Shown here piece by piece: positions 1,577 through 17,652 of a stretch of DNA of 24,000 nt. The translations under genes and the position numbers were made by a program. The notes under the pieces were generated by a model. That model did not search any database. It saw only the letters and a list, made by a program, of their open reading frames with translations, and had not been told where the DNA came from. Positions within the stretch are counted from its first letter, which is position 1. Each line of letters begins with the position of its first letter. The stretch is from Gemmatimonadaceae bacterium. GTDB lineage: Bacteria; Gemmatimonadota; Gemmatimonadetes; Gemmatimonadales; Gemmatimonadaceae. The stretch lies in assembly GCA_035253585.1 (NCBI GenBank), contig DATFBY010000094.1, positions 1-24,000 of the forward strand, given 5' to 3'.

Positions 1577-3442
1577 ATGGCGATCGATCTGGCTAAAGCC
1601 ATTGGCGAAGTCGAGGAGCGTTTGACCGCGCTCCGATTCCGCGCCTCCGGTGTCGATGTCCGCCCGGAATCCATGCTCGACGAAGTCGCGCAGCTCGTGT
1701 ACGAGGCGCGCACACTCCTCAAGCGCATCGCCAAGGTCGGTGCCACGACCGCTGTCGCGGTCGACCACCACGCCGAAGCTACGCCGCCAAGCGTCGAAGA
1801 CGACAGCTGGAGCGAGCTGCTGAGAGAGCCGTACTTTCGCACCGACGAGCACGGCATCGTCACCGCCGTGAATTCGATCGCGTGCGAGGCGATCAAGCTT
1901 CCGAACTACTTCGTTCTCGGCCGCCCGCTTTCGATGTTCATCACGATGGAATCGCGGCAAGCGATCCGAGCGCAGCTTATTCGGCTCTCGACGGTCGAGC
2001 GGGTCGACGGCGTTCACGTGAGTCTGCGCCGCCCCGCCGGCGGGCCGCTCGAGGGGAGTTTCTCAGCAGCGGCTCTTTTCCGCGACGGCATCTACGCCGG
2101 CGCGCGGTGGCTCTTCTATCCAACCGTCGAGCAGGAGGCCGCCGGCTCCTTTCCCGCAATTCCGCTTCCTGGAGAGAACGGTTCGAGACGCACCGCCTTT
2201 TTGGCGATGGCCAGCGGTATCATGTCCCGATCGTTGGACTATGAGGAAACGCTGGCCGCGTTCGCTACGATTTCGCTCCCGATGCTGGGCGATTGGTGCA
2301 TCGTCGACGTCATCAGCGAGAGTGGACACGTCCGTCGCGCGACGGTGACCTGCGCGCCTACCGAGCCGTTGGCCTCACGCATTCCACTCGTGTCTCGCGC
2401 TCCGCGCCTCGACACCGATCGCACCGCCATTGCCGAAGTACTGTCCGGCGGGCAGCCGCAAATCGTCCGCCCGGGAGCGACGGGCTTGGCCGCGTTGCTG
2501 GCAGCGACAAATGAGGAGCTAGAGCTCTTCATGGAGCTAGGCGTGACCTCAGCGCTCATCGTCCCGCTCACGGCACGCGGACAGACGCTGGGAGCCGTGA
2601 CCTTTCTGTTTGCGAGCTCACACCGACGGCACGGGCCCGCCGACTTAGCGCTGGCTCGAGAGCTCGCCGCGCGCGTCGCCATCTCGGCCGACAACGCACG
2701 ACTTTATCGCGAGGCGCAGAAAGCGAATCAGGCGAAATCCGATTTCCTGGCGGCGATGTCTCACGAGCTACGAACGCCCCTCACCGCCGTGATCGGCTAC
2801 ACCGAGATTCTTCAGGACGAGATCGTCGGCTCGCTGGCGCCAATTCAGAAAGAGCAGCTCTCGAGAATTCGTGCGAGCAGTGAGCACCTATTGGTATTGG
2901 TCGAGGAGATTCTCGCGTTCGCGCGGCTGGAGGCCGGCAGCGATCATCTGTCGTTGGAGCCGATTCGGGTGCAGGTGCCGGTCGACCAGGCCGTGACGCT
3001 GGTTGCCACTCAGGCGCGCGTGCGCCAGCTGTCAGTGGTCGTCGACGTCCCGGACGACACGCCGCCGTTCCTCGCTGATGCGGCGAAGGTTCGCCAGATA
3101 CTCGTTAACCTGATGGCCAACGCCGTGAAGTTCACTCAGGAGGGTGAGGTCGGTGTGCGCGTCCGCGCGACCGCCGAGTGGATGACGTTCACCGTATGGG
3201 ACACGGGCATCGGCATTTCGGCCGAGCACCTGAACCAGATCTTCGATCCCTTCTGGCAGGTCGATCAGAAAGCAACTCGCGCGTACGGCGGAAGTGGCCT
3301 TGGGCTCGCCGTCGTCAGGCGTCTGGCGCGGCTCATGGGCGGCGATGTCACCGTCAACTCCGAGCCGGGACAGGGAAGCCGCTTCACGGTGCGTCTTCCG
3401 CTGGCGGGCCCGCCTCCGCCGGTGGAGCGCGAGCTCAGGTAG
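1577..3442 (+). CDS. Soluble sensor histidine kinase: N-terminal helix, PAS-like, GAF, HisKA, HATPase_c; no receiver domain
   Basis: H-box SDFLAAMSHELRTPLTAVIGYTEIL. N-box QILVNLMANAVKF. G-boxes WDTGIGI and GGSGLGLAVVRRLARLMGG. GAF-like block ..LGDWCIVDV...ALIVPLTARGQTLGAVTF... No hydrophobic TM segments. Confidence 0.9.
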   Translation: MAIDLAKAIGEVEERLTALRFRASGVDVRPESMLDEVAQLVYEARTLLKRIAKVGATTAVAVDHHAEATPPSVEDDSWSELLREPYFRTDEHGIVTAVNSIACEAIKLPNYFVLGRPLSMFITMESRQAIRAQLIRLSTVERVDGVHVSLRRPAGGPLEGSFSAAALFRDGIYAGARWLFYPTVEQEAAGSFPAIPLPGENGSRRTAFLAMASGIMSRSLDYEETLAAFATISLPMLGDWCIVDVISESGHVRRATVTCAPTEPLASRIPLVSRAPRLDTDRTAIAEVLSGGQPQIVRPGATGLAALLAATNEELELFMELGVTSALIVPLTARGQTLGAVTFLFASSHRRHGPADLALARELAARVAISADNARLYREAQKANQAKSDFLAAMSHELRTPLTAVIGYTEILQDEIVGSLAPIQKEQLSRIRASSEHLLVLVEEILAFARLEAGSDHLSLEPIRVQVPVDQAVTLVATQARVRQLSVVVDVPDDTPPFLADAAKVRQILVNLMANAVKFTQEGEVGVRVRATAEWMTFTVWDTGIGISAEHLNQIFDPFWQVDQKATRAYGGSGLGLAVVRRLARLMGGDVTVNSEPGQGSRFTVRLPLAGPPPPVERELR

Positions 3443-5327
3443 TACGCTCGGGTTGTTGACCGTCGAGCTGTTCCATCGTGATGATGGCGCCGTCCACGGT
3501 GCCGCCGTCGTTGAGGAGCGGAAGCGTCGCCACTCTGCACGTCACCTGGCGCCCACGTCGGTTGATGCAGGGAATATCCGAATTGCCTGCGAACGACGCA
3601 TCGGCCAAGGCGTTTCGCAGCGGCTGCTTGAGCTGCTCCACGGGCAAGCCGACGTCGAGCGACAAGAGGTTTCGGCCTATCACTTCCTCGCGCCGCAGGC
3701 CCCAGAGGTCTTCGGCCCTGCTATTCCAGAGCAGCACGTCGAGCTCGCGGTCCACTACCACGACCCCGCCGCGCATGCTCCGGAGGATCGCCGCGAGCAT
3801 CGAGTTTGCCTGATTCAGCTCGTCGCTTCGTAGGCGGAGCTCATCGTTTATCGTCTGTAGCTCCTCGTTGGTAGAGTGCAGCTCCTCGTTCATCGTTTCG
3901 AGCTCTTCGTTGCTCGACTGTAGCTCTTCGTTGGTGGTCTCGAGCTCTTCCACGGTGGATTGCAACTCTTCATTCGTGGTTTCGAGCTCCTCATTGGTGG
4001 ACTGAAGCTCTTCGTAAGCGGCCTCCAGCTCCTGATTGGCGTGCTCCAGCTCTTGCTGCAGTCGCTTGAATCCCGTGACGTCCGAGAACGTGATCGATGC
4101 GCCGAGCAGCTTGCCGCCAGTCGTCAGCGGTGCGACGTACACATCGAACCAACGCATGTCGCCGCTGGCCACGGGCCATTCCACGGCGGAAATCGCCACA
4201 GCCCGGCCATCGCGATATGCCCGCTCCAACCGGGAGCGAAGCTCGAGTGGCTTGTACGATACCGTCAGGTCCTGAATCGGTCGACCGACGTCGTGCTGGG
4301 TAATGGAGAAGAGACTCCTCGAGCGTTCGTTCGCCAGCACCAGCACACCGTCGGCATCGACCACCAGCTGCGCGAGCGACGAGCTGTCGAAGGCGGCGTC
4401 GCGAACTTGCTCGCTGCCCCGCGCTTGAAAACCGTTGCCGGGGTTGTCCGCTTGCGCCATCAGCATGAAATGATCTCTCAAGTTGTGCTGACCCAGCTTC
4501 ATGGAGAGACGCCGCTTCAGATCGATGGGCGCAAAGAGGTCGCTGTGCGACAGCAATGTCTCGGCGCGGCCAAGGAACAGGACGCCGCCCTCCGAGAGTG
4601 CGAAATGAAAGCGGCCAAGGATTTTCGCCTGCACTTCGGCATTGAAGTACATGAGCGTGTTTCGACAGATGAGCACGTCGACACGTGAAATGGGCGCATC
4701 TTGAATGAGGTCGTGTCGGCCGAAGATGACCTGGCGCCGCATGTCCTTCTTGAAGACGTACTCGCCATTCACCGGATCGAAGTACTTTGCCCGCAACGTC
4801 GGCGGCACTGCCTCGACGTCGCGCTCGCTGTACACCGCCGCACGGGCTTTGTTGAGCGCGTTCTCATCTACGTCCGTAGCGTAGATCTTCACGCGATCCC
4901 GGAACTCCTGCGGCCCGAGCACCTCGGCAAGGATCATGGCGATTGAATACGCCTCCTCGCCCGATGCCGCGCCCGCGCTCCACACCCGGATGATCGACTG
5001 AGCCGGCCTGCGCTCGAGCAGCTGTGGCAGGACCTGGTGCTCGAGCAGCTGCCATGGCTCCGGATCGCGGAAAAATGACGTGACGTTGATCAGGACCGTA
5101 TCGAACAGCGCGGCGAACTCTTCCGGATGCACTTCGAGATAGTCCAGATATGCGCCGAAGTCCTGGACGCCGATCATCTGCATCCGCTTGCTGATGCGCC
5201 TGTGGAGCGTCGACCGCTTGTAGCCCGTGAAGTCGAACCCGCGAGTGCGCTTCAAGTACTGAAGAAGCGCCTCGAACTCGTGGTTGGTCTCTTGGCTCGA
5301 CATGGACACCTGCTTCCCGAGGCTCAC
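3435..5327 (-). CDS. CheR-type SAM-dependent protein-glutamate methyltransferase fused to PAS, an 84-aa heptad coiled coil and a second PAS
   Basis: CheR N-domain (FDFTGYKRSTLHRRISKRM). SAM-binding motifs (IRVWSAGAASGEEAYSIAMIL, ATDVDENAL, DVLICRNTLMYF). Two PAS-like blocks flank NEELQST-type repeats. The start is GTG 5327; the alternative ATG at 5303 (MSSQETNHEF) is equally plausible. Confidence 0.9.
   Translation of the reverse strand: MSLGKQVSMSSQETNHEFEALLQYLKRTRGFDFTGYKRSTLHRRISKRMQMIGVQDFGAYLDYLEVHPEEFAALFDTVLINVTSFFRDPEPWQLLEHQVLPQLLERRPAQSIIRVWSAGAASGEEAYSIAMILAEVLGPQEFRDRVKIYATDVDENALNKARAAVYSERDVEAVPPTLRAKYFDPVNGEYVFKKDMRRQVIFGRHDLIQDAPISRVDVLICRNTLMYFNAEVQAKILGRFHFALSEGGVLFLGRAETLLSHSDLFAPIDLKRRLSMKLGQHNLRDHFMLMAQADNPGNGFQARGSEQVRDAAFDSSSLAQLVVDADGVLVLANERSRSLFSITQHDVGRPIQDLTVSYKPLELRSRLERAYRDGRAVAISAVEWPVASGDMRWFDVYVAPLTTGGKLLGASITFSDVTGFKRLQQELEHANQELEAAYEELQSTNEELETTNEELQSTVEELETTNEELQSSNEELETMNEELHSTNEELQTINDELRLRSDELNQANSMLAAILRSMRGGVVVVDRELDVLLWNSRAEDLWGLRREEVIGRNLLSLDVGLPVEQLKQPLRNALADASFAGNSDIPCINRRGRQVTCRVATLPLLNDGGTVDGAIITMEQLDGQQPERTT
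3807..4058 (-). repeat. Coding 21-nt periodic tandem repeat giving 12 uninterrupted heptads (QQELEHA NQELEAA YEELQST NEELETT NEELQST VEELETT NEELQSS NEELETM NEELHST NEELQTI NDELRLR SDELNQA)
   Basis: On the + strand the hexamer ctcYtS (reverse complement of the xE-L codons) recurs exactly every 21 nt. Its positions are 3819, 3840, 3861, 3882, 3903, 3924, 3945, 3966, 3987, 4008, 4029 and 4050. Confidence 0.9.
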
Positions 5328-5403
5328 CTCGCGCCGCGCTGCGGCGTCAAGTCAAAGCTGCGAACGTCGCCGCAGTCGCACAAGGCACGTGCCCGCTGAG
5401 CGC

Positions 5404-6489
5404 TCAGAGATTCGAACCCGCGTTGGGTTCCATTCCATTGACGATCGCGGTCGCATCGCTGTGCAGCCGCGCGGGATCGCGCGCGATAGATCCGGCGCCG
5501 CGATCCTGGGAGAGCACCGCGCGGATCGTTTCGGCATTCTTATGCGCGACCTCCGCCTGCGCCGCGAATCGTTTGGCTCCGAGTGCATTACCACGGGCGC
5601 GCATTCGCTCGGCGACGCTAAGGGACAGCGACATATTTTCCTCGAGCGCGCGAAGGGCGGTCCACAACGCGGCATCCAGCGTCTCGCCCGTCCGATTCAT
5701 CAGCGCATCGGTCGACCACGCGTGCCCCACGCGACATCGGAAATGCACGATGTCTCCGTTCCGCAGCGCATAGAGCGCTCCGCCGCAGTCGGGACAGCCG
5801 TAGCCGGATGGGGTGCCGGGACGCACTGCCTGCGTGATCGCCTCCGAATCCATTTCAGCGATGTCGGCCTCCATTTCGAGCTCTTCATCTTCTTCGGTCA
5901 TCGGTGCTCCATTGACGGCGACAGGCTCGTGTGCGAGCCGAGTCAGCAGTGGTCCTAGGTCCTTGAGCCGGACGATGTGGTCGACACCGACGCGGTCTAT
6001 GGCGCTCTGCGGCATTCCGGAATAGATCGCCTCCACTGGGTCCTGCGCGATTGCAACACCACCGTAGCGCTTGATGGCAGCCAGTCCCACCGTGCCATCG
6101 TCGAGGTTCCCGGAAAGGACCACGCCGACTGTCCGTTCCCGGTACGCCACGGCGGCGGTTCGGAAAAGCGGATCCACGGCCGGACGAAATCCGCTCTCGC
6201 GCGGTCCGCGTGTGATGCGGACGTGGCCGCGCTTGACGAGTAGGTGATGATCGGGCGGAGCGACGTAGATCACGCCACGCTCGATGAGCTCGCGGTCGGT
6301 CGGATACCGAGCGTGCAGTGCGCTGCGGCGATCCAGAAGGCTGGCCAGGACGCTCGGGTTATCGGGAGGAACGTGCAGGACGACGAAGACCGCACCCGGG
6401 AAGTCAGCGGGAAGTTGTCGCACGACGTCGATCAGCATCTCGACTCCACCAGCGGAAGCGCCGATGCACACCACGTCCCGTCCGGCCAT
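5404..6489 (-). CDS. CheB-like protein-glutamate methylesterase catalytic domain (no REC) with acidic linker, C-terminal zinc ribbon and helical tail
   Basis: Ser/His/Asp triad context: VVCIGASAGG, VVLHVPP, LSGNLDDGT. C-terminal motif GYGCPDCGGALYALRNGDIVHFRCRVGHAWS. The ORF track starts at TTG 6546. I prefer ATG 6489 because GAGGTG (6495-6500, minus strand) sits 5 nt upstream. Confidence 0.85.
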   Translation of the reverse strand: MAGRDVVCIGASAGGVEMLIDVVRQLPADFPGAVFVVLHVPPDNPSVLASLLDRRSALHARYPTDRELIERGVIYVAPPDHHLLVKRGHVRITRGPRESGFRPAVDPLFRTAAVAYRERTVGVVLSGNLDDGTVGLAAIKRYGGVAIAQDPVEAIYSGMPQSAIDRVGVDHIVRLKDLGPLLTRLAHEPVAVNGAPMTEEDEELEMEADIAEMDSEAITQAVRPGTPSGYGCPDCGGALYALRNGDIVHFRCRVGHAWSTDALMNRTGETLDAALWTALRALEENMSLSLSVAERMRARGNALGAKRFAAQAEVAHKNAETIRAVLSQDRGAGSIARDPARLHSDATAIVNGMEPNAGSNL

Positions 6490-6582
6490 CTCGCCACCTC
6501 GCGACGTTTGCTTCGCGCACAACTCGAGCAAACGCTGGTTCCGCAAGGCCCGTGCTTGATTGCAGGGTGCTTGGCTACCTTC

Positions 6583-7185
6583 CTACGACGCTAGCTGGAC
6601 GAGTGCTCCGGCGATCTCACCCGAGGCGAGTACCTCGTCAGCGGCGCCGGCCGCGATTGCGGCCAGCGGCATGCTGGGGAATTGCGCGAGGCTCGGATCC
6701 TCGACGATCACGAAGCCCCCGGCATCGTGGATCGCTCGCGCACCCGTCGCGCCGTCGCGTCCGCTGCCGCTCAATACGATTGCGATCACGTTGCGTTTGA
6801 ACGCCCGGGCCGCGGACACGAAAAGGGGATCGGCGGCGGGGCGGACGTGGTGCTCGGGCGGCTCGTGCGTAAGTGCCATCGTGCCGTTGCGCCGAATGAC
6901 GACGTGATAGTTAGGCGGCGCGACGTAGACGATCCCTGCCTCGAGCGTCTCACCGTGCTCGGCACGCTTGACGCTGCGTTTGGATGCTCGCCGAAGCACG
7001 TCGGCCAACGCCGACGGCTCGGCGCGGCTCACGTGCAGGACGATGACGATCGGTGGCTGGAAGAGCGAAGGCAGAGCCCGCAGAATTCGAAGCAGCGTGG
7101 GGAAGCCGCCTGCGGAGGCCGCACAAACGACCGCGCGCGGCTTTCGTGCTCGAGCCGATTCGAGCATTGACGCCAACTCCGACAT
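6583..7185 (-). CDS. Minimal CheB-like methylesterase, catalytic domain only (about 200 aa, no REC)
   Basis: VVCAASAGG, IVLHVSR, LSGSGRDGATGARAIHDAGGFVIVEDP and VYVAPPNYH are all CheB_methylest hallmarks. The alternative start ATG 7167 is preceded by GGAG. Confidence 0.85.
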   Translation of the reverse strand: MSELASMLESARARKPRAVVCAASAGGFPTLLRILRALPSLFQPPIVIVLHVSRAEPSALADVLRRASKRSVKRAEHGETLEAGIVYVAPPNYHVVIRRNGTMALTHEPPEHHVRPAADPLFVSAARAFKRNVIAIVLSGSGRDGATGARAIHDAGGFVIVEDPSLAQFPSMPLAAIAAGAADEVLASGEIAGALVQLAS

Positions 7186-7309: not shown

Positions 7310-7651
7310 ATGCCGACTTACGAGTTCGAGTGCAGTAACGGTCACCGGTTCGACAGGTTTTTCCGGAAGATTGCGGATGCGGCCGCCGAACTCCCGTGCG
7401 AGGAGTGCGGGGCGGTGGCCACCCGGCGCATTTCCGGAGGTGCCGGGCTCCACTTCAAGGGTTCTGGCTTTTACGTCACCGATTACGGTAAGGGCGGGAA
7501 GAAACCGGCGGAGAGTGCCGGCGGAGGGGGCGCGCCTGAAAGCTCGGGTGGGGCGCCCGACAGCGCACCGACGAGCGCCGAGGCGAAAGGCGATACCAAG
7601 CCCGCCACACCGGAAAAGAAATCCGACACGAAGTCCACTCCCAAGAAATGA
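7310..7651 (+). CDS. FmdB/CxxC_CxxC_SSSS-family zinc-ribbon protein with a Gly/Pro/Lys-rich disordered tail
   Basis: MPTYEFECSNGHRFDRF...ELPCEECGAVATRRISGGAGLHFKGSGFYVTDY is the family signature. The true start is taken as ATG 7310, inside the longer track ORF 6968-7651. Confidence 0.85.
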   Translation: MPTYEFECSNGHRFDRFFRKIADAAAELPCEECGAVATRRISGGAGLHFKGSGFYVTDYGKGGKKPAESAGGGGAPESSGGAPDSAPTSAEAKGDTKPATPEKKSDTKSTPKK

Positions 7652-9294
7652 CTACGGCGCCCGACCTGATCCGCGCCGCTCTGGTCCGCGCGGCGCGGGA
7701 GCTTAGTGCGCCCGAGCCGATCGAGCCGCTCATCGAAAGGCCTCGCGATCCGGGGCATGGTGAGTGGGCGACCAATCTGGCGCTCGTGCTCGCGCGTCCG
7801 CTGAAGAAGAAACCGCGCGACATCGCGGAACGGTTGGTGGAGAAGCTCGCTTTGGATCGCGGAATCGTGACCGCGGTCGAGATCGCGGGCCCGGGCTTCA
7901 TCAACTTCCGCGTCGCGCCCGGCGCGAACGCGCGTGAGCTCGAGAGCATCCTCCGGCGCGACCTTGAATATGGCCGCAGCGACGCGGGTCGCCGCGAGAA
8001 AGTCAACATAGAATTCGTCTCGGCGAATCCGACGGGACCGCTCCACGTTGGGCACGGCCGTCAGGCAGCGATCGGTGATGCGATCGCGTCGCTGCTCGAC
8101 GCGACCGGGTGGGAAGTCTCCCGCGAATACTACTACAACGATGCCGGGGCACAGATCGCCAACCTCGGGCTGAGCGTGCAAGCGCATCTCGCTCGTCAGG
8201 CGGGCCGCGACGTGGCGATCCCCGAGGGCGGGTATCACGGCGAGTACGTGCGCGAGATCGCTGATCGCTACGCCGCGGAGCATGCGGAGGATCGTGACGG
8301 GCGCGACCTCGATGCGATTACCCGATTCGCCGTGCGCGAGCTGCGACAGGAGCAGGATGTCGACCTGCAGGCATTCGGCGTTCGCTTCGACACGTACTAT
8401 CTCGAATCGTCGCTCTACACCACCGGGCAGGTCGAAGAGACCGTGCGCGCGCTGATCGCCGCCGGTCACGCGTACGAAAAGGATGGCGCGCTCTGGTTGC
8501 GCACGACAGAGTACGGCGACGACAAGGATCGTGTGATGCGGAAGAGCGACGGGACGTTCACGTATTTTCTCCCCGATGTCGCTTACCACGTCAGCAAATG
8601 GGAGCGTGGATTCCATCGCGCGATCAACGTGCAGGGCTCCGACCACCACAGTACCGTCGTACGCGTTCGCGCGGGTCTTCAAGCGCTCGACATGGGTATA
8701 CCGGCCGGGTATCCGGAGTACGTGCTGCACCAGATGGTGACGCTCATGCGCGGCGGCGAAGAAGTGAAGTTCTCCAAGCGCACCGGGACCATCGTGACTG
8801 TCCGAGAGCTAGTCGACGAAGTCGGACGCGACGCGATGCGCTACTTCTTCCTCATGCGGAAAGGCGACTCGCCACTGGTGTTCGACATCGAGCTGGCAAA
8901 GAAGCAGTCGCTCGAGAATCCCGTGTACTACATCCAGATGGCGCACGCGCGCATGTCGGGGATCTTCCGCGTCGGCGAGATCGACCCGGCATCCGTGGCG
9001 ACTGAAAGCGTGAGCTTCGACGTCCTCGACAAGCCGGAGGAGCAAGCGCTGATCCGTGCGCTGCTCGATTATCCATCGTTGATCGCGGGTGCCGCCGAGT
9101 CGCTCGAGCCGCACCGGGTGGCATCGTATCTCCACGACACCGCCGGCCTCGCGCACGCCTGGTACCACAAGTGGTATGTGCTCAACGAGCCTGACGAGAT
9201 CCGCTCGGCGCGCCTCGTGTTAGCCCGCGCGGCGCAGATCGTCTTGAGGAATGGGTTGCAGATATTAGGCATCAATGCGCCGGATCGGATGTGA
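7648..9294 (+). CDS. argS: Arginine--tRNA ligase
   Basis: HIGH-type motif SANPTGPLHVGHGR, KMSKS-type motif KFSKRTGT, and C-terminal anticodon-binding (DALR) region ..EPHRVASYLHDTAGLAHAWY... ATGA overlap with the upstream gene. Confidence 0.97.
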   Translation: MTTAPDLIRAALVRAARELSAPEPIEPLIERPRDPGHGEWATNLALVLARPLKKKPRDIAERLVEKLALDRGIVTAVEIAGPGFINFRVAPGANARELESILRRDLEYGRSDAGRREKVNIEFVSANPTGPLHVGHGRQAAIGDAIASLLDATGWEVSREYYYNDAGAQIANLGLSVQAHLARQAGRDVAIPEGGYHGEYVREIADRYAAEHAEDRDGRDLDAITRFAVRELRQEQDVDLQAFGVRFDTYYLESSLYTTGQVEETVRALIAAGHAYEKDGALWLRTTEYGDDKDRVMRKSDGTFTYFLPDVAYHVSKWERGFHRAINVQGSDHHSTVVRVRAGLQALDMGIPAGYPEYVLHQMVTLMRGGEEVKFSKRTGTIVTVRELVDEVGRDAMRYFFLMRKGDSPLVFDIELAKKQSLENPVYYIQMAHARMSGIFRVGEIDPASVATESVSFDVLDKPEEQALIRALLDYPSLIAGAAESLEPHRVASYLHDTAGLAHAWYHKWYVLNEPDEIRSARLVLARAAQIVLRNGLQILGINAPDRM

Positions 9295-9300
9295 GATAGC

Positions 9301-9392
9301 GGGCCATCCGCCATCCGCCATCCGCCATCCGGCTATCGATTCGGCAAGCTCGCTTCGCTCGGATGGCGGATGGCGGATGGCCGATGGCGCCC
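9301..9392. repeat. Large inverted repeat made of tandem heptamers; probable terminator or REP-like hairpin after argS
   Basis: 4 x CCATCCG (9304-9331), a 28-nt spacer, then 3 x CGGATGG plus 1 x CCGATGG (9360-9387). The flanks are GGG and CCC. A pyrimidine/T-rich tract, CCCTTTCTTCCTTTACACTTTCTTC, follows. Confidence 0.75.
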
Positions 9393-9426
9393 TTTCTTCC
9401 TTTACACTTTCTTCAGATCGACGCTC

Positions 9427-10344
9427 ATGACCGTCCTCGTCGTCGGCTCCGTCGCTCTCGACTCCGTCGAGACTCCATTCGGCAAAGCGGATGATGCCCT
9501 CGGCGGCTCCGCAACGTTTTTCGCGGCGTCGGCAAGTCTGCTCTGTCCGGTGCAGCTGGTTGGTGTCGTCGGCAATGACTACCCAGTCGATCAGCTCGAG
9601 CCGCTGAAGCAACGCGGCGTCGATCTGTCTGGACTCGAGCGCGCCGACGGCGAGTCATTTCGCTGGCGCGGCCGGTACCGGCACGACCTCAACAGCGCCG
9701 AAACCCTCGAGACTCGGCTCGGCGTCTTCTCCCACTTCCGACCGAAGATCCCCGAGCAATTCAGGCGCGCGCCCTTCGTCTTCCTCGGCAACATCGACCC
9801 ACGGCTCCAGCTCGATGTGCTCAAGCAAGTCGAGAAGCCGCGGCTCGTGGCTTGCGACACGATGAACTTCTGGATCGAGAGTCGTCGTCCCGATCTCTTG
9901 GCGCTGCTCGAGCACGTGGACCTGATCACCCTCAACGACGCCGAGGCCCGGCAGCTCACGGATGAATACAACCTGCTGCGCGCGGCACGGTGGATCATGG
10001 ATCGAGGTCCGCAGCACGTGATCATCAAGAAAGGAGAGCACGGCGCGTTCATGTTCACCAAGAAAACGCTCTTCTATGCTCCGGCCTTTCCGCTGGAGTC
10101 GGTCTTCGATCCCACTGGCGCAGGCGACTCGTTCGCCGGCGGATTCATCGGTTATCTGGCGCGCACCGGCGATCTCTCCGAGCCCAATCTGAAGCGCGCC
10201 GTCGTCTACGGCTCGGCAATGGGATCGTTCGCCGTCGAGCGGTTTTCGATCCAACGGTTTCTCGAGATCGGTGCAAAGGACATCACCGAGCGCGTGCGTG
10301 ATTTTCATCGACTCGTGTCCTTCGATCAGGACCTGGTGGAGTGA
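9427..10344 (+). CDS. PfkB/ribokinase-family sugar or nucleoside kinase
   Basis: MTVLVVGSVALDSVETPFG N-terminus, and C-terminal PfkB signature DPTGAGDSFAGGFIGYLA. ATG 9427 is chosen because the track start at 9370 lies inside the hairpin repeat. Confidence 0.85.
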   Translation: MTVLVVGSVALDSVETPFGKADDALGGSATFFAASASLLCPVQLVGVVGNDYPVDQLEPLKQRGVDLSGLERADGESFRWRGRYRHDLNSAETLETRLGVFSHFRPKIPEQFRRAPFVFLGNIDPRLQLDVLKQVEKPRLVACDTMNFWIESRRPDLLALLEHVDLITLNDAEARQLTDEYNLLRAARWIMDRGPQHVIIKKGEHGAFMFTKKTLFYAPAFPLESVFDPTGAGDSFAGGFIGYLARTGDLSEPNLKRAVVYGSAMGSFAVERFSIQRFLEIGAKDITERVRDFHRLVSFDQDLVE

Positions 10345-11387
10345 GCTCCGAGCGCGACTCGCTCGATTACCGCGCCGCCGGCGTCGACATCGACGCCGCT
10401 GACGACGCCAAGGAGCGGATCAGGGCGCTGGTCGAATCGACGTTCACGTCAGGCACGCGCAGCCGCTTCGGCGGCTTCGGCGGGATGTTTCGGGTGCCTG
10501 ACGACGCGCGGCAGCCGCTGCTCGTCTCCAGCGCCGACGGCGTCGGCACAAAACTGAAAGTCGCCATCGCCGCCGGCCGTCACGACACCGTGGGGCAAGA
10601 TCTCGTCAACCACTGCGTGAACGACATTCTGGTGCAGGGCGCACGCCCTCTCTTCTTCCTCGATTACGTCGCATTCGGCGAGCTGAGCCCCGAGATCGTC
10701 GAGCAGGTGGTGAGCGGCATCGCCGCGGGTTGCCGCGAGAATGGATGCGCGCTCATCGGCGGCGAAACGGCCGAGATGCCGGGATTGTACACGCCGCCTG
10801 ACTACGATCTGGCGGGCTTCATCGTTGGAATCGTCGAAGAGACTGACGTCCTGGGTCCGAACAGGGTGCGCGAAGGCGATGTCCTCATCGGGCTCGCCAG
10901 CTCCGGACTACACACCAACGGCTATTCGCTCGCTCGGCGCATCCTCTTCGACAAGCTCGGCCTGACCGTCGACAATCCGTTCCCTGGCGGCGGCGGGACG
11001 GTCGCCGACGTGCTGCTCAAGGTCCACCGCTCCTACCTTGCCGCACTCTCGCCGGTGCTCGGCGAGATTCACGCGATGGCGCACATCACCGGCGGCGGGA
11101 TTCCGGGAAATCTCGTGCGGGCGCTCCCCGATACGGTCGATGCGGTGGTCGATATTCCAAGCTGGGTGATTCCGAACGATTTCCTGGCGCTCGAGCAGGG
11201 AGGGGAAGTTCCGCGCGAGGAGATGTTCCGCACCTTCAACATGGGGGTGGGGATGATCGTGATCGCGCCAGAGGAGTCCGTCGCCACGATTCTGGCCAGC
11301 AGCGGAACGGCAGGCATCACGGCGTGGCAGCTCGGTCGGGTGATGAGCGGGTCCGGTAAAGTGAGCTTGCAAGAGGGAATTGCGTGA
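10341..11387 (+). CDS. purM: Phosphoribosylformylglycinamidine cyclo-ligase (AIR synthetase)
   Basis: YRAAGVDIDAADD.., VSSADGVGTKLKVA, DLVNHCVNDILVQGARPLFFLDY and HITGGGIPGNL. GTGA overlap with the upstream gene. Confidence 0.95.
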   Translation: MSSERDSLDYRAAGVDIDAADDAKERIRALVESTFTSGTRSRFGGFGGMFRVPDDARQPLLVSSADGVGTKLKVAIAAGRHDTVGQDLVNHCVNDILVQGARPLFFLDYVAFGELSPEIVEQVVSGIAAGCRENGCALIGGETAEMPGLYTPPDYDLAGFIVGIVEETDVLGPNRVREGDVLIGLASSGLHTNGYSLARRILFDKLGLTVDNPFPGGGGTVADVLLKVHRSYLAALSPVLGEIHAMAHITGGGIPGNLVRALPDTVDAVVDIPSWVIPNDFLALEQGGEVPREEMFRTFNMGVGMIVIAPEESVATILASSGTAGITAWQLGRVMSGSGKVSLQEGIA

Positions 11388-12364
11388 GGCGGGCACTCTG
11401 CCTGACGAGTATCCTGCTTGCCGGCGCGGCGCCGGTCGTGGCGCAGCAACCGGATCCGCAATGCCTCGATCCGGCGATCGTCGGCCCAGCACTGATCGGT
11501 GGCGACGCGTGCCAGAAGGCGATCGACCTCTTCCGCTACTTCAATCCCCAAGTGGGAACGCTGGTACAAGGGGGGAACGCAACCGTTGGACACGGTGGGA
11601 CGCTTCGATTCGCGCGCTTCGCGGCGGGAATTCGTCTCACCGCGCTGCGCGCCCATGTTCCCGTCCTGAACGGACCCGGAGTGTCCTCCGGCCCACCGGT
11701 GAGCGACAGTTACGACGTGGATTCGAAGTGGGCCGCGCTGCCATCGGCCGACGTTGCGATCGGACTCTTCGAAGGCATCCCGCTCGGTCTGCTCCGTGTC
11801 GGCAGCATCGAAGCCATTGGAACCGGATTTGTCGTCCCTGATGTCACGCACGGTTCCGTGCGGCTCGAGCCGAGCGGCGCCCGATTCCGGTTTGGATGGG
11901 GGGCACGGGTAGGAATTCTTCAAGAGAGCCTCGTGACGCCGGCGATCGTCGTCACGTGGATGCGGCGCGAGACGCCGGACATCGAGCTGTCAGGCAGAAC
12001 GACGGCGCAAGATTCGCTCGGCGTCCACGATCTTCGCGTGCGCACCACGGGCTGGCGGGTCGTCGCCAGCAAGAGCTTTCTCAGCTTCGGTCTAGCGGGT
12101 GGCGTCGGCCGCGACGAGTATCGGTCGCGTGGCGACCTCTTCTATCGTCTGCGCAGCGGACTGGGCGCCGCTACCCTTCGCGTCGATGAGCGCGTGCGGC
12201 GCCTCAACATGTTTGGCACGGTGTCGTTGAATCTTCCACTCATTCAGTTCGTGGGAGAGATCGGTCGCGCGTCAGGCGGCGACGTCGACACGTACAACAG
12301 CTTCGCCACCGCGGCCGACGCGGCACGGTGGTATGGATCGGCGGGCGTTCGCATTTCGCCCTGA
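11384..12364 (+). CDS. Hypothetical exported protein (signal peptide; possibly beta-rich outer-membrane protein)
   Basis: N-terminal MRRALCLTSILLAGAAPVVAQQ looks like a Sec signal with an AxA-like VAQ site. Alternating hydrophobic/polar strands occur later (RFRFGWGARVGIL, AIVVTWM, WRVVASKSFLSFGLAGGVG). I recognise no family. Its codon frame is tightly coupled to both neighbours. Confidence 0.6.
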   Translation: MRRALCLTSILLAGAAPVVAQQPDPQCLDPAIVGPALIGGDACQKAIDLFRYFNPQVGTLVQGGNATVGHGGTLRFARFAAGIRLTALRAHVPVLNGPGVSSGPPVSDSYDVDSKWAALPSADVAIGLFEGIPLGLLRVGSIEAIGTGFVVPDVTHGSVRLEPSGARFRFGWGARVGILQESLVTPAIVVTWMRRETPDIELSGRTTAQDSLGVHDLRVRTTGWRVVASKSFLSFGLAGGVGRDEYRSRGDLFYRLRSGLGAATLRVDERVRRLNMFGTVSLNLPLIQFVGEIGRASGGDVDTYNSFATAADAARWYGSAGVRISP

Positions 12365-12369
12365 CGAAC

Positions 12370-13482
12370 GTGCCAGAACACGGCTCTTCCGACGCTCGCG
12401 ACCTCGCGTACATGCGTCGCGCGCTGGCGCTCGCCAGGCGAGGGTGGGGCTGGACCGCGCCGAATCCGATGGTCGGCGCGCTGATCGTGCGGGCCGGTCG
12501 GATCGTCGGCTCCGGTCATCATGCACGCTACGGTGAAGCGCACGCCGAAGTCGCGGCGCTCGAGGAAGCCGGTGCACGCGCCAAGGGCGCCACGGCGTAC
12601 GTGACGCTCGAGCCCTGCACGCACCAAGGAAAAACGCCGCCGTGCGTCAACGCACTCATCGAGGCACAGCTGCGCCGCGTGGTGGTCGCCGTGCGCGATC
12701 CAAATCCTGTCGCACGTGGAGGAGTGGAGAAGTTGCGACGGGCGGGAATCCAGGTCGATGTCGGCGTCGCCCAGAGTGAGGCGTGCGAGCTGAACGCGGC
12801 GTTCTTCCACTCCTTCGCAACCGAGCGTCCCTGGGTTCGGCTCAAGTTGGCGACGACAATCGACGGCGCGATCGCCGACGCCAAGGGAAAGTCGAGATGG
12901 ATCACCGGTGCGAACGCACGAGCGGCCGCGCACCGGCTGCGTGCCGACAGCGATGCGATCGCGGTCGGCATCGGAACTATCCTGGCCGACGATCCGATTC
13001 TCACGGTTCGTCACGCGCGCGCGCCTCGCATCTCGCCGCTCCGCGTTGTGTTCGATCGGCAGTCGCGCCTTCCGCTCGCGTCGACGTTGGCGCGAACGGC
13101 CAACGAATTTCGAACGGTGGTCATCACTCAGGACGGTGAGAGCACGCGCTCGCGCGCATTACGCGACGCGGGAATCGAGATCATGGAGGCCGATACGCTT
13201 GACGACGCGCTGCTCGCGCTGCGCGCGCGCGGCGTCCGTTCCCTCTTGCTGGAAGGGGGCGCCAGGCTCGCCGGAAGCTTTTTGAGCGAGGCGCGCGTGG
13301 ATCGTTTGATTATCTTTCAGGCACCGATCCTATTGGGCCAAGGTGCTTTGGGGGCGTTCGATTTTGCTCGGGGATTCGAGCTCACCGATGCGTCACGATT
13401 CCCGGTGCTCCTGCGCCGACGTCTCGGTGAGGATCTTATGACCGTGTACGCACTTCGAGAGCTGGCGTGTTCACCGGATTGA
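12370..13482 (+). CDS. ribD: Bifunctional riboflavin biosynthesis protein RibD (pyrimidine deaminase / uracil reductase)
   Basis: YMRRALALARRGWGWTAPNPMVGALIV and HAEVAALEEAG...TLEPCTHQGKTPPC form the CDA zinc motif. A reductase half follows (KLATTIDG..., LLLEGGARLAGSF). The start is uncertain: GTG 12370 (chosen), ATG 12328 (37-nt overlap with the upstream gene) or ATG 12412. Confidence 0.9.
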   Translation: MPEHGSSDARDLAYMRRALALARRGWGWTAPNPMVGALIVRAGRIVGSGHHARYGEAHAEVAALEEAGARAKGATAYVTLEPCTHQGKTPPCVNALIEAQLRRVVVAVRDPNPVARGGVEKLRRAGIQVDVGVAQSEACELNAAFFHSFATERPWVRLKLATTIDGAIADAKGKSRWITGANARAAAHRLRADSDAIAVGIGTILADDPILTVRHARAPRISPLRVVFDRQSRLPLASTLARTANEFRTVVITQDGESTRSRALRDAGIEIMEADTLDDALLALRARGVRSLLLEGGARLAGSFLSEARVDRLIIFQAPILLGQGALGAFDFARGFELTDASRFPVLLRRRLGEDLMTVYALRELACSPD

Positions 13483-14105
13483 TCGACGACGTCGGGCGTA
13501 TCGAGCGCATCGCCGTGACGACGGCGGGGCGCGAGCTACGCGTTCGATGCCGCTACGACGACCTTCTGGAAGGCGAGAGCATTGCGGTGAACGGCGCCTG
13601 CCTAACTGTGCGAGAGCGTGGGCCAGGTTGGTTCACGACAGCCGCGGTCGAAACGACGCTCGGGCGCACCACGATCGGGCACTGGCGCGAGGGCCAAAGC
13701 GTTAATCTAGAACGGGCCCTGCGCCTCGGGGACCGGATTGGCGGCCATCTGGTGCAGGGTCATGTCGACGGCGTGGGCACCGTGACCGCCGTGTCCCGGA
13801 GTGGCGATGCACTGATGATCGACATCGCGTTAGGCGGCGGCCTGGCGGATCTGATGGTGCCGCACGGCTCGCTGTGCGTGGACGGAGTGAGCCTTACCGT
13901 GAACGCACTCCCGACTGCGGACACGGTGCAGCTCTCGCTCATCGACTATACGCTGCGGCACACCACATTGGGCGCGCTTCGCTCCGGGGACCGCGTGCAC
14001 ATTGAGGCCGACATCATCGGCAAGTACGTACAGCGCCTGGTGGCGCCGTACGGCGCCGATGCGTCGGCCGCGAATCTCGGTTCTCGAATCTCCAATCTCG
14101 ACTGA
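13467..14105 (+). CDS. ribE: Riboflavin synthase (alpha chain)
   Basis: [13 protein letters not shown].. N-terminus. Duplicated lumazine-binding repeats: [13 protein letters not shown] and [12 protein letters not shown]. Confidence 0.93.
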
Positions 14106-15313
14106 TGCCTTTCGGAACGATCGAGCGGGCGATCGAAGACATTCGGGCCGGGCGGCTCGTGCTCGTGGCCGACGACGAGGATCGCGAGAACGAAGGCGAC
14201 CTCATCGGCGCGGCGCAGCTCGTGACCCCGGAGGTCGTGAATTTCATGATCAAGCGCGCCGGTGGCTTGATCTGCCTCGCGCTCACCCCCGAACGGTGCG
14301 ACCAGCTCGGCCTCGCCCCTATGAGCGAGGTCAACACCGAGGAGCAGCGCACGGCGTTCACGGTGAGCATCGATGCTGCCGCGCGCTTCGGTGTGACCAC
14401 CGGAATCAGCGCCGCCGATCGAGCCAAGACGATCCGCGTCGCCGTCGATCCGTCCAGCACGCCGAACGATCTTCGACGCCCCGGACACGTCTTCCCCTTG
14501 CGTGCCTATGGGGGAGGCGTGCTGCAGCGCGTCGGGCATACCGAGGCCGCGGTCGATCTGGCGCGCCTCGCCGGCCTCTATCCGGCGGGCGTCATTTGCG
14601 AGGTGCTGGACGACGAGACAGGCGACTCGGCTCGGCGGCCCCAGCTCGAGCGTTTCGCCGAGCGACACGGACTGATCTTCGTCACGGTGGCGCAGCTGGT
14701 CGCGTATCGCCTTCGCACCGAGCGCCTCGTCCACCGCATCGCCGAAGCCCGTCTGCCCACCGAAGTCGGCGAATGGCGGATCATCGGTTACCGCAATGAC
14801 GTCGACGATCACGAGCACGTCGCCCTCGTGTACGGAACCATCGGCGACGGCGAGAACGTGCTGGTTCGCGTGCACTCCAAGTGCCTCACCGGGGATGTTT
14901 TCGGCTCCCTGCGTTGCGATTGCGGGCCGCAGCTCCACGCCGCAATGCAGATGATCGAGAAAGAGGGACGGGGCGCCATCGTTTATCTCGATCAGGAAGG
15001 GCGCGGCATCGGACTGCTCAACAAGCTCAAAGCCTACGAGCTCCAAGACACGGGCGCCGACACGGTCGAGGCGAACGAGCGACTCGGTTTCGAGCCAGAC
15101 CTGCGCAATTACGGCATTGGGGCGCAGATCCTGCTCGATCTCGGACTGAAGTCGATCCGTCCAATGACCAACAATCCACGGAAGATGGTCGGGCTCGAGG
15201 GCTACGGCCTGCGCATCGAATCACGCGTACCGCTCACGATGGCCGCGACGACCGAGAACCGCGGCTATCTCGACGCGAAGCGTTCGAAGCTCGGCCACTT
15301 GCTCGCGCACTGA
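14105..15313 (+). CDS. ribBA: Bifunctional 3,4-dihydroxy-2-butanone-4-phosphate synthase / GTP cyclohydrolase II
   Basis: DHBP synthase block: [41 protein letters not shown] block: [41 protein letters not shown]. Confidence 0.95.
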
Positions 15314-15792
15314 TGGCCGAGTTCACCGGAACACCGAACGGAAAGGGAAAGCGCATCGCCGTCGTGGTCAGCCGATTCAACGAGAGCGTCACTACCAAGC
15401 TGCTCGAAGGCGCCATGAACGCCCTCACGCGCCACGGCGCGATGTACGACGACATCGACGTCGTGTGGGTGCCGGGGGCGTGGGAGCTTCCCGCCGCGGC
15501 GCGCTTTCTCCTCGCATCAGAGCGCTATCACGCACTGGTTGCTGTCGGCGCCGTCATCCGCGGTGAGACGGCGCACTTCGATTACATCGCCAACGAAGCG
15601 TCTCGCGGCCTGGCTGATGCCAGCGCGGAGTTCGACACGCCGGTCGGATTCGGCGTCCTGACGTGTGATACAGAGGAGCAAGCGGAAGCGCGCGCCGGTG
15701 GCGAGCACGGCAACAAGGGATGGGACGCGGCATTGGCCGCGCTCGAGATGGCCGACCTGTTCGACCGTCTGCATGTCGCGCCGGAAGACTGA
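15313..15792 (+). CDS. ribH: 6,7-dimethyl-8-ribityllumazine synthase
   Basis: IAVVVSRFNESVTTKLLEGA, VWVPGAWELP, AVGAVIRGETAHFDYI and VGFGVLT. TGATG junction with ribBA. The start lies inside the longer track ORF 14881-15792. Confidence 0.93.
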   Translation: MAEFTGTPNGKGKRIAVVVSRFNESVTTKLLEGAMNALTRHGAMYDDIDVVWVPGAWELPAAARFLLASERYHALVAVGAVIRGETAHFDYIANEASRGLADASAEFDTPVGFGVLTCDTEEQAEARAGGEHGNKGWDAALAALEMADLFDRLHVAPED

Positions 15793-16192
15793 GACCCGTG
15801 CCCGAGCGCGGGCGCTTCAAGCGTTGTATGCGTGGGACATGCGCGGAGAAAAACAGCTCGACCTGGTCGCCACGCAGATCTGGGACGATCTGGCCGTTCC
15901 GCCTGACGAGCGCGCCATGGCGGGTCGTCTCGTTCGCACCGTCGTCGCCGAAGGTCGAGCGCTCGACGACACGCTGCGCGACGTCACCACCAACTGGCGG
16001 CTGGAGCGTCTCGGCGCGATCGAGCGATCGGTGCTCCGGCTCGGCGGCGCCGAGCTCATGATCGGCGAGACTCCGCCGCGCGTCGTCATTCAAGAAGCAG
16101 TGCGCCTCGCCGAGCGTTACGGGAGCGCGCAGAGTGCACGGTTCGTGAACGGCGTGCTCGATGCCCTGGCCCGCCGCATGGGTCGCCTCTAG
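15773..16192 (+). CDS. nusB: Transcription antitermination factor NusB
   Basis: RARARALQALYAWDM.., ERLGAIERSVLRLGGAELM and AVRLAERYGSAQSARFVNGVLD. Classical ribH-nusB linkage. ATG 15773 overlaps ribH by 20 nt. Confidence 0.88.
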   Translation: MSRRKTETRARARALQALYAWDMRGEKQLDLVATQIWDDLAVPPDERAMAGRLVRTVVAEGRALDDTLRDVTTNWRLERLGAIERSVLRLGGAELMIGETPPRVVIQEAVRLAERYGSAQSARFVNGVLDALARRMGRL

Positions 16193-17331
16193 TGCGCATC
16201 CTGCTCGTCAACTGGCAGGATCGGGAGAACCCCGAGGCCGGCGGCGCGGAGATCCATCTCCACGAGCTCTTCGGACGCCTGGCTGCCAGCGGTCACGACA
16301 TCACGCTGCTGTGCAGTGGTTGGAAGGGATGCATGCGTCGCGTCGAGCTCGACGACATCCAGATTCATCGTGTCGGCACGCGCTACACATTTCAATTTCT
16401 CGCGCGGCGATATTACCGCCAGCATCTGGCGGCGGCCGACCACGACGTCCTCATCGAGGACATCAACAAGGTGCCGCTCTTCACACCACTATGGGGAGCG
16501 AAGCAGGTAGTGACGCTGGTCCCCCACCTGTTCGGCACTACCGCATTCCGTGAAGTTTCACCTCCATTGGCGGCGATGGTGTGGCTGTCCGAGCTACCGA
16601 TCACACCGATCTATCGTCGCTCGGCATTTCATGCGATCAGTGAGAGCACGGCCGACGATCTGGCGGCGCGCGGCATCCCGCGAAATCAGATTCGCGTGAT
16701 CTATCCAGGTGTCGATACCGTGTACTTCACGCCGAGCCCTGACGAGCGCGCGCCCAATCCGGTTTTCGCCTATGTCGGTCGGCTCAAACGATACAAGGGT
16801 GTCGACATCGTCATGCGAGCGTTCGCCGAGCTTCGTCACCCGACGGCGACGCTCGAGATCGCGGGGACGGGTGACTATCGGCCCACGCTGGAAGCGCTCG
16901 CGGCATCGCTTGACCTCGGCCAACGGGTGCGGTTTCTTGGGTTCATCTCGGAGGAGGAGAAGCGCGCGCTGCTCCGGCGCGCGTGGGCGCTGGCGTTCGC
17001 GTCGCCGAAGGAGGGGTGGGGGATCACCAACCTCGAAGCCGCGGCCAGCGGCACGCCAGTCGTTGCATCGAACTCCCCCGGTCTCCGCGAATCCGTTCGC
17101 GATGGAGAAACCGGATTTCTCGTGCGGCACGCTGACGTCAGCGCAATGGCCGATGCGTTTCGCCGGCTGGCCGAGTCACCGGAGCTCGTGGGTCGTCTCG
17201 CCGTCGGCGCGCGCGCCTTCGCCGAGCGCTTCACATGGGACGACGCGGCGCGACAGACCGAGGACCACCTATCGGAGGTCGTGCACGCGCCACTGAGCAG
17301 CTCGCCGGACCGCAGCCCCGTAGCATCGTAG
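16192..17331 (+). CDS. Glycosyltransferase, GT4 (group 1) family
   Basis: MRILLVNWQD..GGAEIHLHEL N-terminal half. C-terminal EX7E region SPKEGWGITNLEAAASGTPVVASNSPGLRESVRDGETGFLV. Confidence 0.88.
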   Translation: MRILLVNWQDRENPEAGGAEIHLHELFGRLAASGHDITLLCSGWKGCMRRVELDDIQIHRVGTRYTFQFLARRYYRQHLAAADHDVLIEDINKVPLFTPLWGAKQVVTLVPHLFGTTAFREVSPPLAAMVWLSELPITPIYRRSAFHAISESTADDLAARGIPRNQIRVIYPGVDTVYFTPSPDERAPNPVFAYVGRLKRYKGVDIVMRAFAELRHPTATLEIAGTGDYRPTLEALAASLDLGQRVRFLGFISEEEKRALLRRAWALAFASPKEGWGITNLEAAASGTPVVASNSPGLRESVRDGETGFLVRHADVSAMADAFRRLAESPELVGRLAVGARAFAERFTWDDAARQTEDHLSEVVHAPLSSSPDRSPVAS

Positions 17332-17335
17332 GAGG
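17330..17335 (+). promoter_or_regulatory. Shine-Dalgarno for hpf
   Basis: AGGAGG lies 5 nt upstream of GTG 17341. It is the only strong RBS in the only real gap (9 nt) of the 17-gene array. Confidence 0.65.
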
Positions 17336-17340
17336 ACGCA

Positions 17341-17652
17341 GTGGAGATCATCTTTCACGCACACCGGGCCGTCATCTCCCCCACCATGCGCCAGCGCGCC
17401 GAGCGTCACATCGAAAAGATCGCCGGTCGAATGCGACGGCTCGTCGACGCTGTCGTACGTTTCGAACAAGATGGCCCTGTTCGCCGCGTGGAAGTCGTGC
17501 TACACGCTCCGCGAATGCGCCCGTTGATCGGGCAGGGCTTCGGCCGCACCTACGGTCCCGCGCTGTCCGAGGCGCTGGAAAATGTGCAGTCGCAGCTCGC
17601 TCACAAGAAGCGAACGCCGAAGGCGCGGAAGCGTCTTGCCGCTCGGGCATGA
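17341..17652 (+). CDS. hpf: Short ribosome hibernation/ribosome-associated inhibitor family protein (HPF/RaiA, sigma54-modulation protein family)
   Basis: About 100 aa. The beta-alpha-beta pattern MEIIFHAHRAVISPTMRQRAERHIEKIAG...VRFEQDG..RVEVVLH....YGPALSEALENVQSQLAHKKR matches the family layout. The position directly upstream of hprK/PTS genes matches the known hpf-PTS linkage. Confidence 0.7.
   Translation: MEIIFHAHRAVISPTMRQRAERHIEKIAGRMRRLVDAVVRFEQDGPVRRVEVVLHAPRMRPLIGQGFGRTYGPALSEALENVQSQLAHKKRTPKARKRLAARA

Follow-up and report, generated by a model that had tools for sequence, protein, structure and literature searches.

Gene content of the CheB/CheR locus

A 24,000-nucleotide (nt) stretch of DNA from a Gemmatimonadaceae bacterium (assembly GCA_035253585.1, contig DATFBY010000094.1, positions 1 to 24,000 of the forward strand; hereafter, the window) carries, at positions 1577-7185, a group of genes encoding homologues of the chemotaxis adaptation enzymes CheR and CheB next to a sensor histidine kinase. 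Calling of open reading frames (ORFs) placed four adjacent ORFs in this interval, with a plus-strand kinase gene converging on three minus-strand genes. The kinase gene (1577..3442, plus strand) encodes a soluble sensor histidine kinase of 621 amino acids (aa) with the architecture PAS-GAF-HisKA-HATPase_c and no receiver domain. The three minus-strand genes encode, by Pfam annotation, a CheR-PAS-coil-PAS protein (3435..5327; longest ORF of 630 aa, starting from a GTG at 5327), a receiver-less CheB with a C-terminal extension (5404..6546; longest ORF of 380 aa), and a second CheB that consists of the catalytic domain alone (6583..7185; 200 aa; hereafter, CheB-only). The stop codons of the convergent kinase and CheR genes overlap by 8 nt, and a scan for hydrophobic segments found no membrane-spanning segment in any of the four proteins. 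The original prediction, which was made from the window alone, had described these four genes and their domains, and both the positions and the Pfam assignments agree with that description. It had also described the window as containing no methyl-accepting chemotaxis protein (MCP), no CheA, CheW, or CheY, and no receiver domain; consistent with this, Pfam annotation of the window genes identified no MCP, CheA, CheW, or receiver domain in the 24 kb, and phmmer searches with CheY, CheW, and the cytoplasmic domain of Tsr as probes gave no match among window ORFs of at least 80 aa. Statements made here on the absence of che and mcp genes from this genome cover the 24-kb window.

The NCBI model of the CheR protein (P0001), which is 100% identical to the window protein and is annotated as a Gemmatimonadaceae CheR family methyltransferase from a metagenome-assembled genome (MAG), uses an ATG start at 5303, for a length of 622 aa. 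Along the minus strand, the protein comprises CheR_N (residues 17-68, nt 5124-5279), the CheR S-adenosylmethionine (SAM) domain (residues 81-271, nt 4515-5087; E 1.5e-55), a first PAS domain (residues 313-421, nt 4065-4391), a heptad coil segment of 84 residues (residues 422-505, nt 3813-4064), and a second PAS domain (residues 510-619, nt 3471-3800). The CheR domain match spans Pfam profile positions 1-192 of 195, and solved relatives (5FTW and 1AF7) were found for the CheR domain only. More than 8000 homologues of the CheR-PAS-coil-PAS protein were found at E < 1e-20. Stand-alone CheR-coil proteins of ~620 aa share 55-67% identity across Gemmatimonadota, Cyanobacteria, and Chloroflexota, and further members from Planctomycetota, Armatimonadota, Actinomycetota, Acidobacteriota, Kapaibacteriota, and proteobacteria emerged when a single genome was scanned for each species, for a total of at least eight phyla. 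In JGI and KEGG, these proteins are named [quoted passage not shown]

In the kinase, an N-terminal helix (approximately residues 1-60, nt 1577-1756) is followed by a divergent PAS domain (residues 81-190, nt 1817-2146), a GAF domain (residues 222-370, nt 2240-2686), HisKA (residues 386-454, nt 2732-2938; Pfam E 1.4e-21), and HATPase_c (residues 501-610, nt 3077-3406; Pfam E 3.4e-33). The boxes of a class I HisKA kinase are intact, including H396 within SHELRTP, the N box (NLMANAVKF), G1 (DTGIG), and G2 (GSGLGL). The PAS domain falls under the Pfam cut-off (18.2 vs 22.6 bits) and is homologous to clear PAS domains in partner kinases at other loci.

A class of systems with this general composition has been defined by comparative genomics. 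According to a 2022 preprint, Wuichet and Zhulin (2010; Sci Signal 3:ra50) defined MAC1 and MAC2, a methyl-accepting coiled-coil (MAC) class of proteins that combine receptor-like and kinase functions with CheB and CheR, which are incorporated in MAC1 and associated in MAC2; the same preprint states that MAC proteins are experimentally uncharacterised. MiST 3 includes both MAC1 and MAC2 profiles. At the window locus, we found the corresponding features, i.e., no MCP, CheA, or CheW nearby, a conserved coil resembling methylation sites, and an associated kinase. As for canonical adaptation systems, the catalytic triad of CheB and the SAM domain of CheR are present; MCP, CheA, and CheW are absent from the window and the receiver domain is absent from CheB. 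The locus is a split member of the MAC-type class rather than a new kind of system or an unrecognised oddity, given that the class was defined in 2010, is represented in MiST, and carries a JGI name.

The acidic heptad coil and the two CheB proteins

The core of the acidic coil that lies between the two PAS domains of the CheR protein (residues 439-494; 3846..4013, minus strand) consists of eight consecutive heptads (EELQST, NEELETT, NEELQST, VEELETT, NEELQSS, NEELETM, NEELHST, and NEELQTIN), with a register that places Asn at 'a', a Glu-Glu pair at 'b' and 'c', Leu at 'd', and Gln or Glu at 'e'. These heptads, of the NEELQST or NEELETT type, are near-invariant across 81 loci (i.e., the window and 80 genome loci) that represent at least eight phyla, as is the alternation of Gln and Glu at the fifth heptad position. 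Since the 80 genome loci were retrieved partly by the peptide pattern NEELETMN, which biases that heptad, conservation was re-measured on a set of 148 cluster representatives that came solely from HMMER searches, for which the consensus fraction was 0.88 in the coil core vs 0.49-0.52 in the flanking PAS domains. The CheR domain showed a consensus of 0.73 in the locus set, and values over both sets were 0.86-0.88 for the coil and about 0.5-0.6 for the PAS domains; no other segment of the CheR protein is as conserved as the coil. One residue of the window coil, H484 (nt 3876-3878) in the seventh heptad (NEELHST), represents a lineage-specific change at a Gln position, with Gln found there in 77 of the 81 homologues.

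An 88-residue coil segment includes 27 acidic and 4 basic residues (net charge -23), and the core has no basic residues at all (net charge -19). The consensus for MCP methylation sites is EExxA(S/T), and Tsr sites 297, 304, and 311 are spaced 7 residues apart (PMC1079850). With this consensus widened to EE-x-x-[AST]-[ST] (i.e., allowing Ser or Thr for Ala), six exact matches were found in the coil, in strict 7-residue phase, compared to none in the kinase or either CheB and two across the other window proteins (5165 residues); such a run of heptads greatly exceeds chance expectation. Since each heptad nearly fits the CheR site consensus, the coil on the CheR protein, rather than the kinase, is the likely methyl acceptor, judging from sequence; the original prediction had named no substrate. 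Conservation that far exceeds the needs of a plain linker supports a role of the coil beyond that of a linker.

An alternative reading of the same segment is that the coil represents only a rigid dimerisation and signalling helix between the PAS domains, with CheR and CheB in reality acting on some other protein, e.g., the kinase or a response regulator. PAS domains are commonly joined by coiled-coil linkers, the invariant alternation of Gln and Glu together with Asn at 'a' and Leu at 'd' suggests a precise packing code, and partner kinases at related loci have EEL heptads of their own (see below). However, near-total invariance across phyla, at a level above that of the catalytic domain, is not needed for a plain linker, and the coil heptads fit EE-x-x-[AST]-[ST] whereas the kinase heptads do not, with the window kinase having no such site; the module also persists without an adjacent kinase in actinomycetes. 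We thus consider a purely structural coil unlikely, and continue with the coil as the candidate acceptor.

Both CheB proteins begin at the catalytic domain, with neither having an N-terminal receiver, and both match solved CheB catalytic domains (3SFT and 1CHD for CheB-only); the two share 39% identity. Both have a Ser-His-Asp triad that aligns with Ser164, His190, and Asp286 of E. coli CheB. For the extended CheB (all features on the minus strand), the likely start is M20 (nt 6489), which gives a protein of 361 aa, and the CheB_methylest catalytic domain (residues 26-199, nt 5950-6471) is followed by an acidic linker. The extension as a whole measures 175 aa and consists, in alignments, of this linker, a zinc ribbon of the form CPxCGG...(16)...RCRVGH, and conserved helices; the four zinc ribbon residues (C251, C254, C271, and H275; nt 5713-5820) are invariant, and the helices form a hairpin (nt 5497-5712). 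In the AlphaFold model, the extension has a predicted local distance difference test score (pLDDT) of ~85, with >95 for the hairpin, and folds into a small beta ribbon and two long antiparallel helices. No Pfam family matched the extension, and a Foldseek search against the PDB gave no significant match, with generic zinc ribbons and helical hairpins as the only hits, none of them below E = 0.4. Across the related loci, 52 CheB genes belong to this extended subfamily. Wherever the extension was met, it was either joined to CheB or encoded by a short ORF of its own, and possible roles are targeting to the coil or a form of regulation that replaces the absent receiver.

Natural fusions connect the two CheB types to one another as well as to CheR. 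The CheB subfamily that includes CheB-only is the one that natural fusions join to CheR. In addition, single ORFs in which an extension-type CheB is followed by the zinc ribbon and hairpin and then by a short-type CheB were found at two loci (L003:7703-9454 and L014:8286-9911); in the former, which is cyanobacterial, Pfam identifies two CheB_methylest domains flanking the extension. Such fusions suggest, at the level of gene architecture, that the two CheB paralogues function together. At three Pseudonocardia loci (L049, L052, and L077, at ~7700-9950), the DNA upstream of the CheR gene has matches to the extended CheB on either strand; these probably represent two opposed cheB genes, with ORFs that are overlong in high-GC DNA.

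Conserved neighbourhood, partner kinases, and natural fusions

The neighbourhood of the CheR gene was compared over the 80 loci and the window, with up to 10 kb on each flank; 51 of these 81 loci have at least 4 kb on both sides. The ORFs of the loci were searched with the window domains and with the probes for CheY, CheW, and Tsr. A CheB of any type lay less than 3 kb from the CheR gene at 71 of the 81 loci (45/51 among those with longer flanks), the CheB with C-terminal extension at 52 (33/51), CheB-only at 35 (21/51), both CheB types at 16 (9/51), and any histidine kinase at 34-36 (24/51). No locus in either set has an MCP or CheW within 3 kb, and none of the 81 has one within 10 kb. The density of kinase genes per 10 kb was 0.97 inside 3 kb vs 0.12 farther away, an 8-fold enrichment (binomial p 1.8e-11). 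The originally proposed linkage of the kinase with the CheB and CheR genes is thus borne out for CheB and, as an enrichment, for the kinase, but not as a constant association, with about half of the loci lacking a nearby kinase.

These data also bear on an alternative, namely that CheR and CheB serve conventional adaptation of MCPs whose genes lie elsewhere in the genome, with a CheR that just carries PAS sensors and a kinase that is an unrelated neighbour. The CheR and CheB domains do score well against the canonical families, and the 2022 preprint gives a figure of ~80% for species with MAC components that also encode other chemotaxis systems. On the other hand, none of the 81 loci has an MCP, CheA, or CheW within 10 kb, the receiver that links CheB to CheA is absent from both CheBs, full fusions with a histidine kinase exist (as described below), and the preprint mentions some MAC-rich proteome clusters seemingly without other chemotaxis systems. 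We regard this explanation as improbable, and favour a module that works with its own kinase.

Partner kinases at related loci have in common an N-terminal helix followed by PAS. At least two in-phase EEL heptads were found in this helix in 31 of 42 kinases encoded within 3 kb of a CheR gene (with 25 having at least three), compared to a background of 1 in 1446 unrelated ORFs; an example of such a helix is ALEELHVAEEELRQQNEQL, and EEL-helix kinases are encoded, e.g., at L039:11968-13299, L001:7319-8767, and L084:9898-12033. These heptads (e.g., EELRVA and EEELRQQ) are off the CheR consensus and often have Arg or His after Leu, which is why we read them as a possible docking helix, and not as a substrate. 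The window kinase retains the N-terminal helix, but the stretch that corresponds to the EEL heptads is degenerate (YEARTLLKRIAKVG). With the EEL helix lost, coupling at the window locus is less certain than it is family-wide, and this sublineage may rely on other surfaces for coupling, or the coupling may have weakened.

Two further Gemmatimonadaceae MAGs (L083 and L084) show the same gene order, i.e., mutase, PAS-GAF kinase, CheR-coil, CheB with extension, Zn_ribbon_8, argS, pfkB, and purM, with CheR proteins that are 63-65% identical to that of the window and kinase orthologues that are 49% (L083) and 36% (L084) identical. Each has a single CheB gene; compared to them, the window has CheB-only in addition. 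One could argue from these genomes that the kinase is uncoupled from the methylation module here, with adjacency reflecting inherited synteny and CheB and CheR-coil signalling via something else. The EEL heptads are lost from the window kinase and the whole N-terminal helix is gone from the L083 orthologue (the L084 orthologue retains the heptads), the kinase and CheR genes are convergent and do not form one operon, and the mutase-to-argS synteny shared with L083 and L084 shows vertical inheritance. Nevertheless, the kinase has been kept beside CheR in three diverged MAGs with its catalytic motifs intact, and fused MAC1-type proteins connect via PAS domains with no EEL helix before the kinase, so the EEL helix is not the sole possible coupling. 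An uncoupled kinase therefore seems to us quite unlikely, and functional coupling remains our preferred reading.

The set of genes recurs at a plasmid locus of Azospirillum brasilense (L081), which encodes CheR-PAS-coil-PAS-PAS, two CheBs, and a hybrid kinase. Actinomycete loci (Actinoplanes, Dactylosporangium, and an Actinomycetes MAG) have no kinase near the CheB and CheR-coil pair and instead have a nearby conserved gene for a sigma-70 family factor fused to a STAS domain (L043:12655-13857, L037:12635-13747, L033:1662-2834, L067:14774-15904, and L074:7838-9082), which in Actinoplanes is separated from the CheR gene by ~0.8 kb; in the L079 homologue, sigma regions are present and no STAS match was found. 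This neighbour hints at a different output in actinomycetes.

The original prediction had also invoked, as a Rosetta-stone argument for joint function, single polypeptides of the order CheB-CheR-PAS-coil-PAS-HisKA-HATPase(-REC), with REC denoting a receiver. Such a protein exists; a tblastn search of plasmids identified WP_114889177.1 from a plasmid of Sulfitobacter sp. SK012, in which all modules are fused in one polypeptide of 1495 aa (CheB-CheR-PAS-heptads-PAS_10-PAS-HisKA-HATPase-REC), with a PAS-like region after CheR and NEELQST-like heptads of the sequence STEELKAVNEEAMSMNEEFQSTNEELETSKEELQSLNEEL. Shorter CheB-CheR-PAS-coil-PAS fusions of 780-880 aa, whose CheB portion falls in the CheB-only subfamily, occur among close relatives (P0391 and P0253) and add to the argument. 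The function put forward in the original prediction is in line with these data and with the MAC hypothesis as published. A chimeric query composed of CheB, CheR-PAS-coil-PAS, and the kinase core retrieved only CheB-CheR fusions in the best 120 matches, and a representative-wide search returned mainly stand-alone proteins and fragments.

The remaining window genes that can be assigned by Pfam are housekeeping genes (mutase, Zn_ribbon_8, argS, pfkB, purM, rib, nusB, GT4, HPrK, PTS, and ptsI), in line with the earlier description of the flanking genes as unrelated; a few window ORFs lack a Pfam match. Between the cheB genes and argS lies a gene for a Zn_ribbon_8 protein (7310-7651, plus strand; 113 aa) with a low-complexity tail rich in Lys, Pro, and Ser; its position is kept in L083 and L084, and nothing was found that ties the protein to the CheB/CheR module. 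An ORF of 326 aa without a Pfam match (11384-12364, plus strand) lies between purM and ribD, and ORFs with no recorded Pfam match take the same position in L083 (329 aa) and L084 (283 aa). The region at 12328-23034 carries the riboflavin genes ribD, ribE, ribBA, and ribH along with nusB, followed by genes for a GT4 glycosyltransferase, HPr kinase, an EIID-like protein of the phosphotransferase system (PTS), and ptsI. A scan for promoters and terminators found nothing above chance.

Proposed mode of action and comparison with known systems

Overall, we consider it fairly probable that the locus encodes a split, soluble MAC-type CheB/CheR two-component module. As we envision it, the heptad coil would be the substrate of CheR, with near-consensus sites at the 7-residue spacing known from methylation helix 1 of Tsr, and CheR would methylate either the coil of its own chain or that of a dimer partner. 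Removal of the methyl groups would fall to the two receiver-less CheBs, probably as a pair, which may deamidate the alternating glutamines as well, and the PAS domains that flank the coil would bias the methylation balance in response to a cytoplasmic signal. Neutralisation of up to ~20 negative charges would alter the packing of a coil with Asn at 'a' and Leu at 'd', and this change could reach the neighbouring PAS-GAF kinase, which would then phosphorylate a response regulator whose gene lies outside the locus. Gene regulation, or some other response unrelated to motility, would be the output, and methylation would provide slow memory or gain control.

A number of observations weigh against this proposal. 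With regard to the coil, it was not picked up by phmmer when the Tsr cytoplasmic domain served as the query, and homology to MCP methylation helices is therefore not claimed; its match to the site consensus puts Ser or Thr in place of Ala, and the strict invariance of the Gln and Glu positions is unlike MCP methylation sites and may instead reflect a packing role. We found no report of coil methylation for the window protein or any family member, and heptad strings such as NEELQSTNEEL had no match in the full-text literature. With regard to the kinase, that of the window has a degenerate PAS domain and lacks the N-terminal EEL heptads of 31 of 42 partner kinases; approximately half of the loci, most conspicuously those of actinomycetes with their sigma-70-STAS genes, have no adjacent kinase, and the window contains no response regulator. 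Finally, the loci are phylogenetically non-independent, and the enrichment statistics therefore overstate the evidence.

A more far-reaching proposal is that the coil acts as a soluble, array-free methyl acceptor and, at the same time, as a methylation-gated docking rail for outputs. The EEL helices of the kinases, which are basic at 'e', would zip onto the coil only in particular methylation states, the sigma factor-STAS fusion would take the output role of the kinase in actinomycetes, and the CheB paralogues would be a heterodimer targeted by the zinc ribbon and hairpin domain. Taken as a whole, this proposal is possible and, in our judgement, doubtful; if true, CheB and CheR-coil would form a portable cassette, for adaptation or memory, to which various output proteins could be connected.

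In textbook accounts, bacterial chemotaxis owes its memory to reversible glutamate methylation, which is understood only inside arrays of MCP, CheA, and CheW. The very common MAC-type modules suggest a soluble use of this chemistry, namely the tuning of ordinary two-component kinases. To the existing picture of MAC systems, our analysis adds a likely acceptor coil, two CheB subfamilies that are sometimes fused, and an EEL helix on partner kinases along with its loss here, as well as the sigma-STAS neighbour that replaces the kinase in actinomycetes. The invariant eight-site coil fused to its own methyltransferase, the paired receiver-less CheBs, and the EEL helix of partner kinases provide handles for biochemistry. 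The window locus itself is an ordinary and somewhat degenerate member from an uncultured organism, and better models would be carriers available in culture (e.g., Nostoc, Calothrix, Azospirillum, and Actinoplanes); the MAC class overall is a good and tractable problem.

Compared to known systems, the window locus shares with E. coli Tsr and Tar homologous enzymes and an acidic helix that has Glu-Glu pairs every 7 residues, sites near EExxA(S/T), and some sites encoded as Gln. Unlike in Tsr and Tar signalling, there is no MCP signalling domain, CheA, CheW, or CheB receiver, the methyltransferase and the candidate acceptor helix are parts of one protein, and this helix carries eight tandem sites vs four or five. 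Methylation-tuned signalling with a non-motility output, as proposed for the window, is a feature of the Wsp, R. centenum Che3, and M. xanthus Che3 pathways. Unlike the window module, which has none of these proteins, such alternative pathways retain MCP, CheW, and CheA (e.g., PMC3868531 and PMC3147164).

The A. brasilense locus is similar to that of the window in encoding CheR-PAS-coil-PAS(-PAS), two receiver-less CheBs (336 and 339 aa, with the extended type suggested by length alone), and a kinase, and differs in that its kinase is a hybrid with a receiver and retains the EEL helix. An A. brasilense CheR/CheB fusion protein, which may or may not be the product of the L081 gene, is reportedly involved in cyst development and chemotaxis (Wu et al. 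2011, Microbiol Res 166:606). The Sulfitobacter fusion WP_114889177.1 has the same modules in the same order (CheB-CheR-PAS-heptads-PAS-HisKA-HATPase) as the window, where they are split into four genes with no receiver; the fusion is one polypeptide with a C-terminal receiver, has fewer and less regular heptads, and has no zinc-ribbon CheB. MAC proteins, as described secondhand, have receptor and kinase in one protein, unlike the window, where the coil is on CheR, the kinase is encoded by a separate convergent gene, and the two CheBs are separate. As in MAC1 and MAC2, to which the locus is likened by description rather than placed in one or the other by profile, CheB and CheR are combined with a coiled-coil 'receptor' and a histidine kinase that stand in for MCP, CheA, and CheW.

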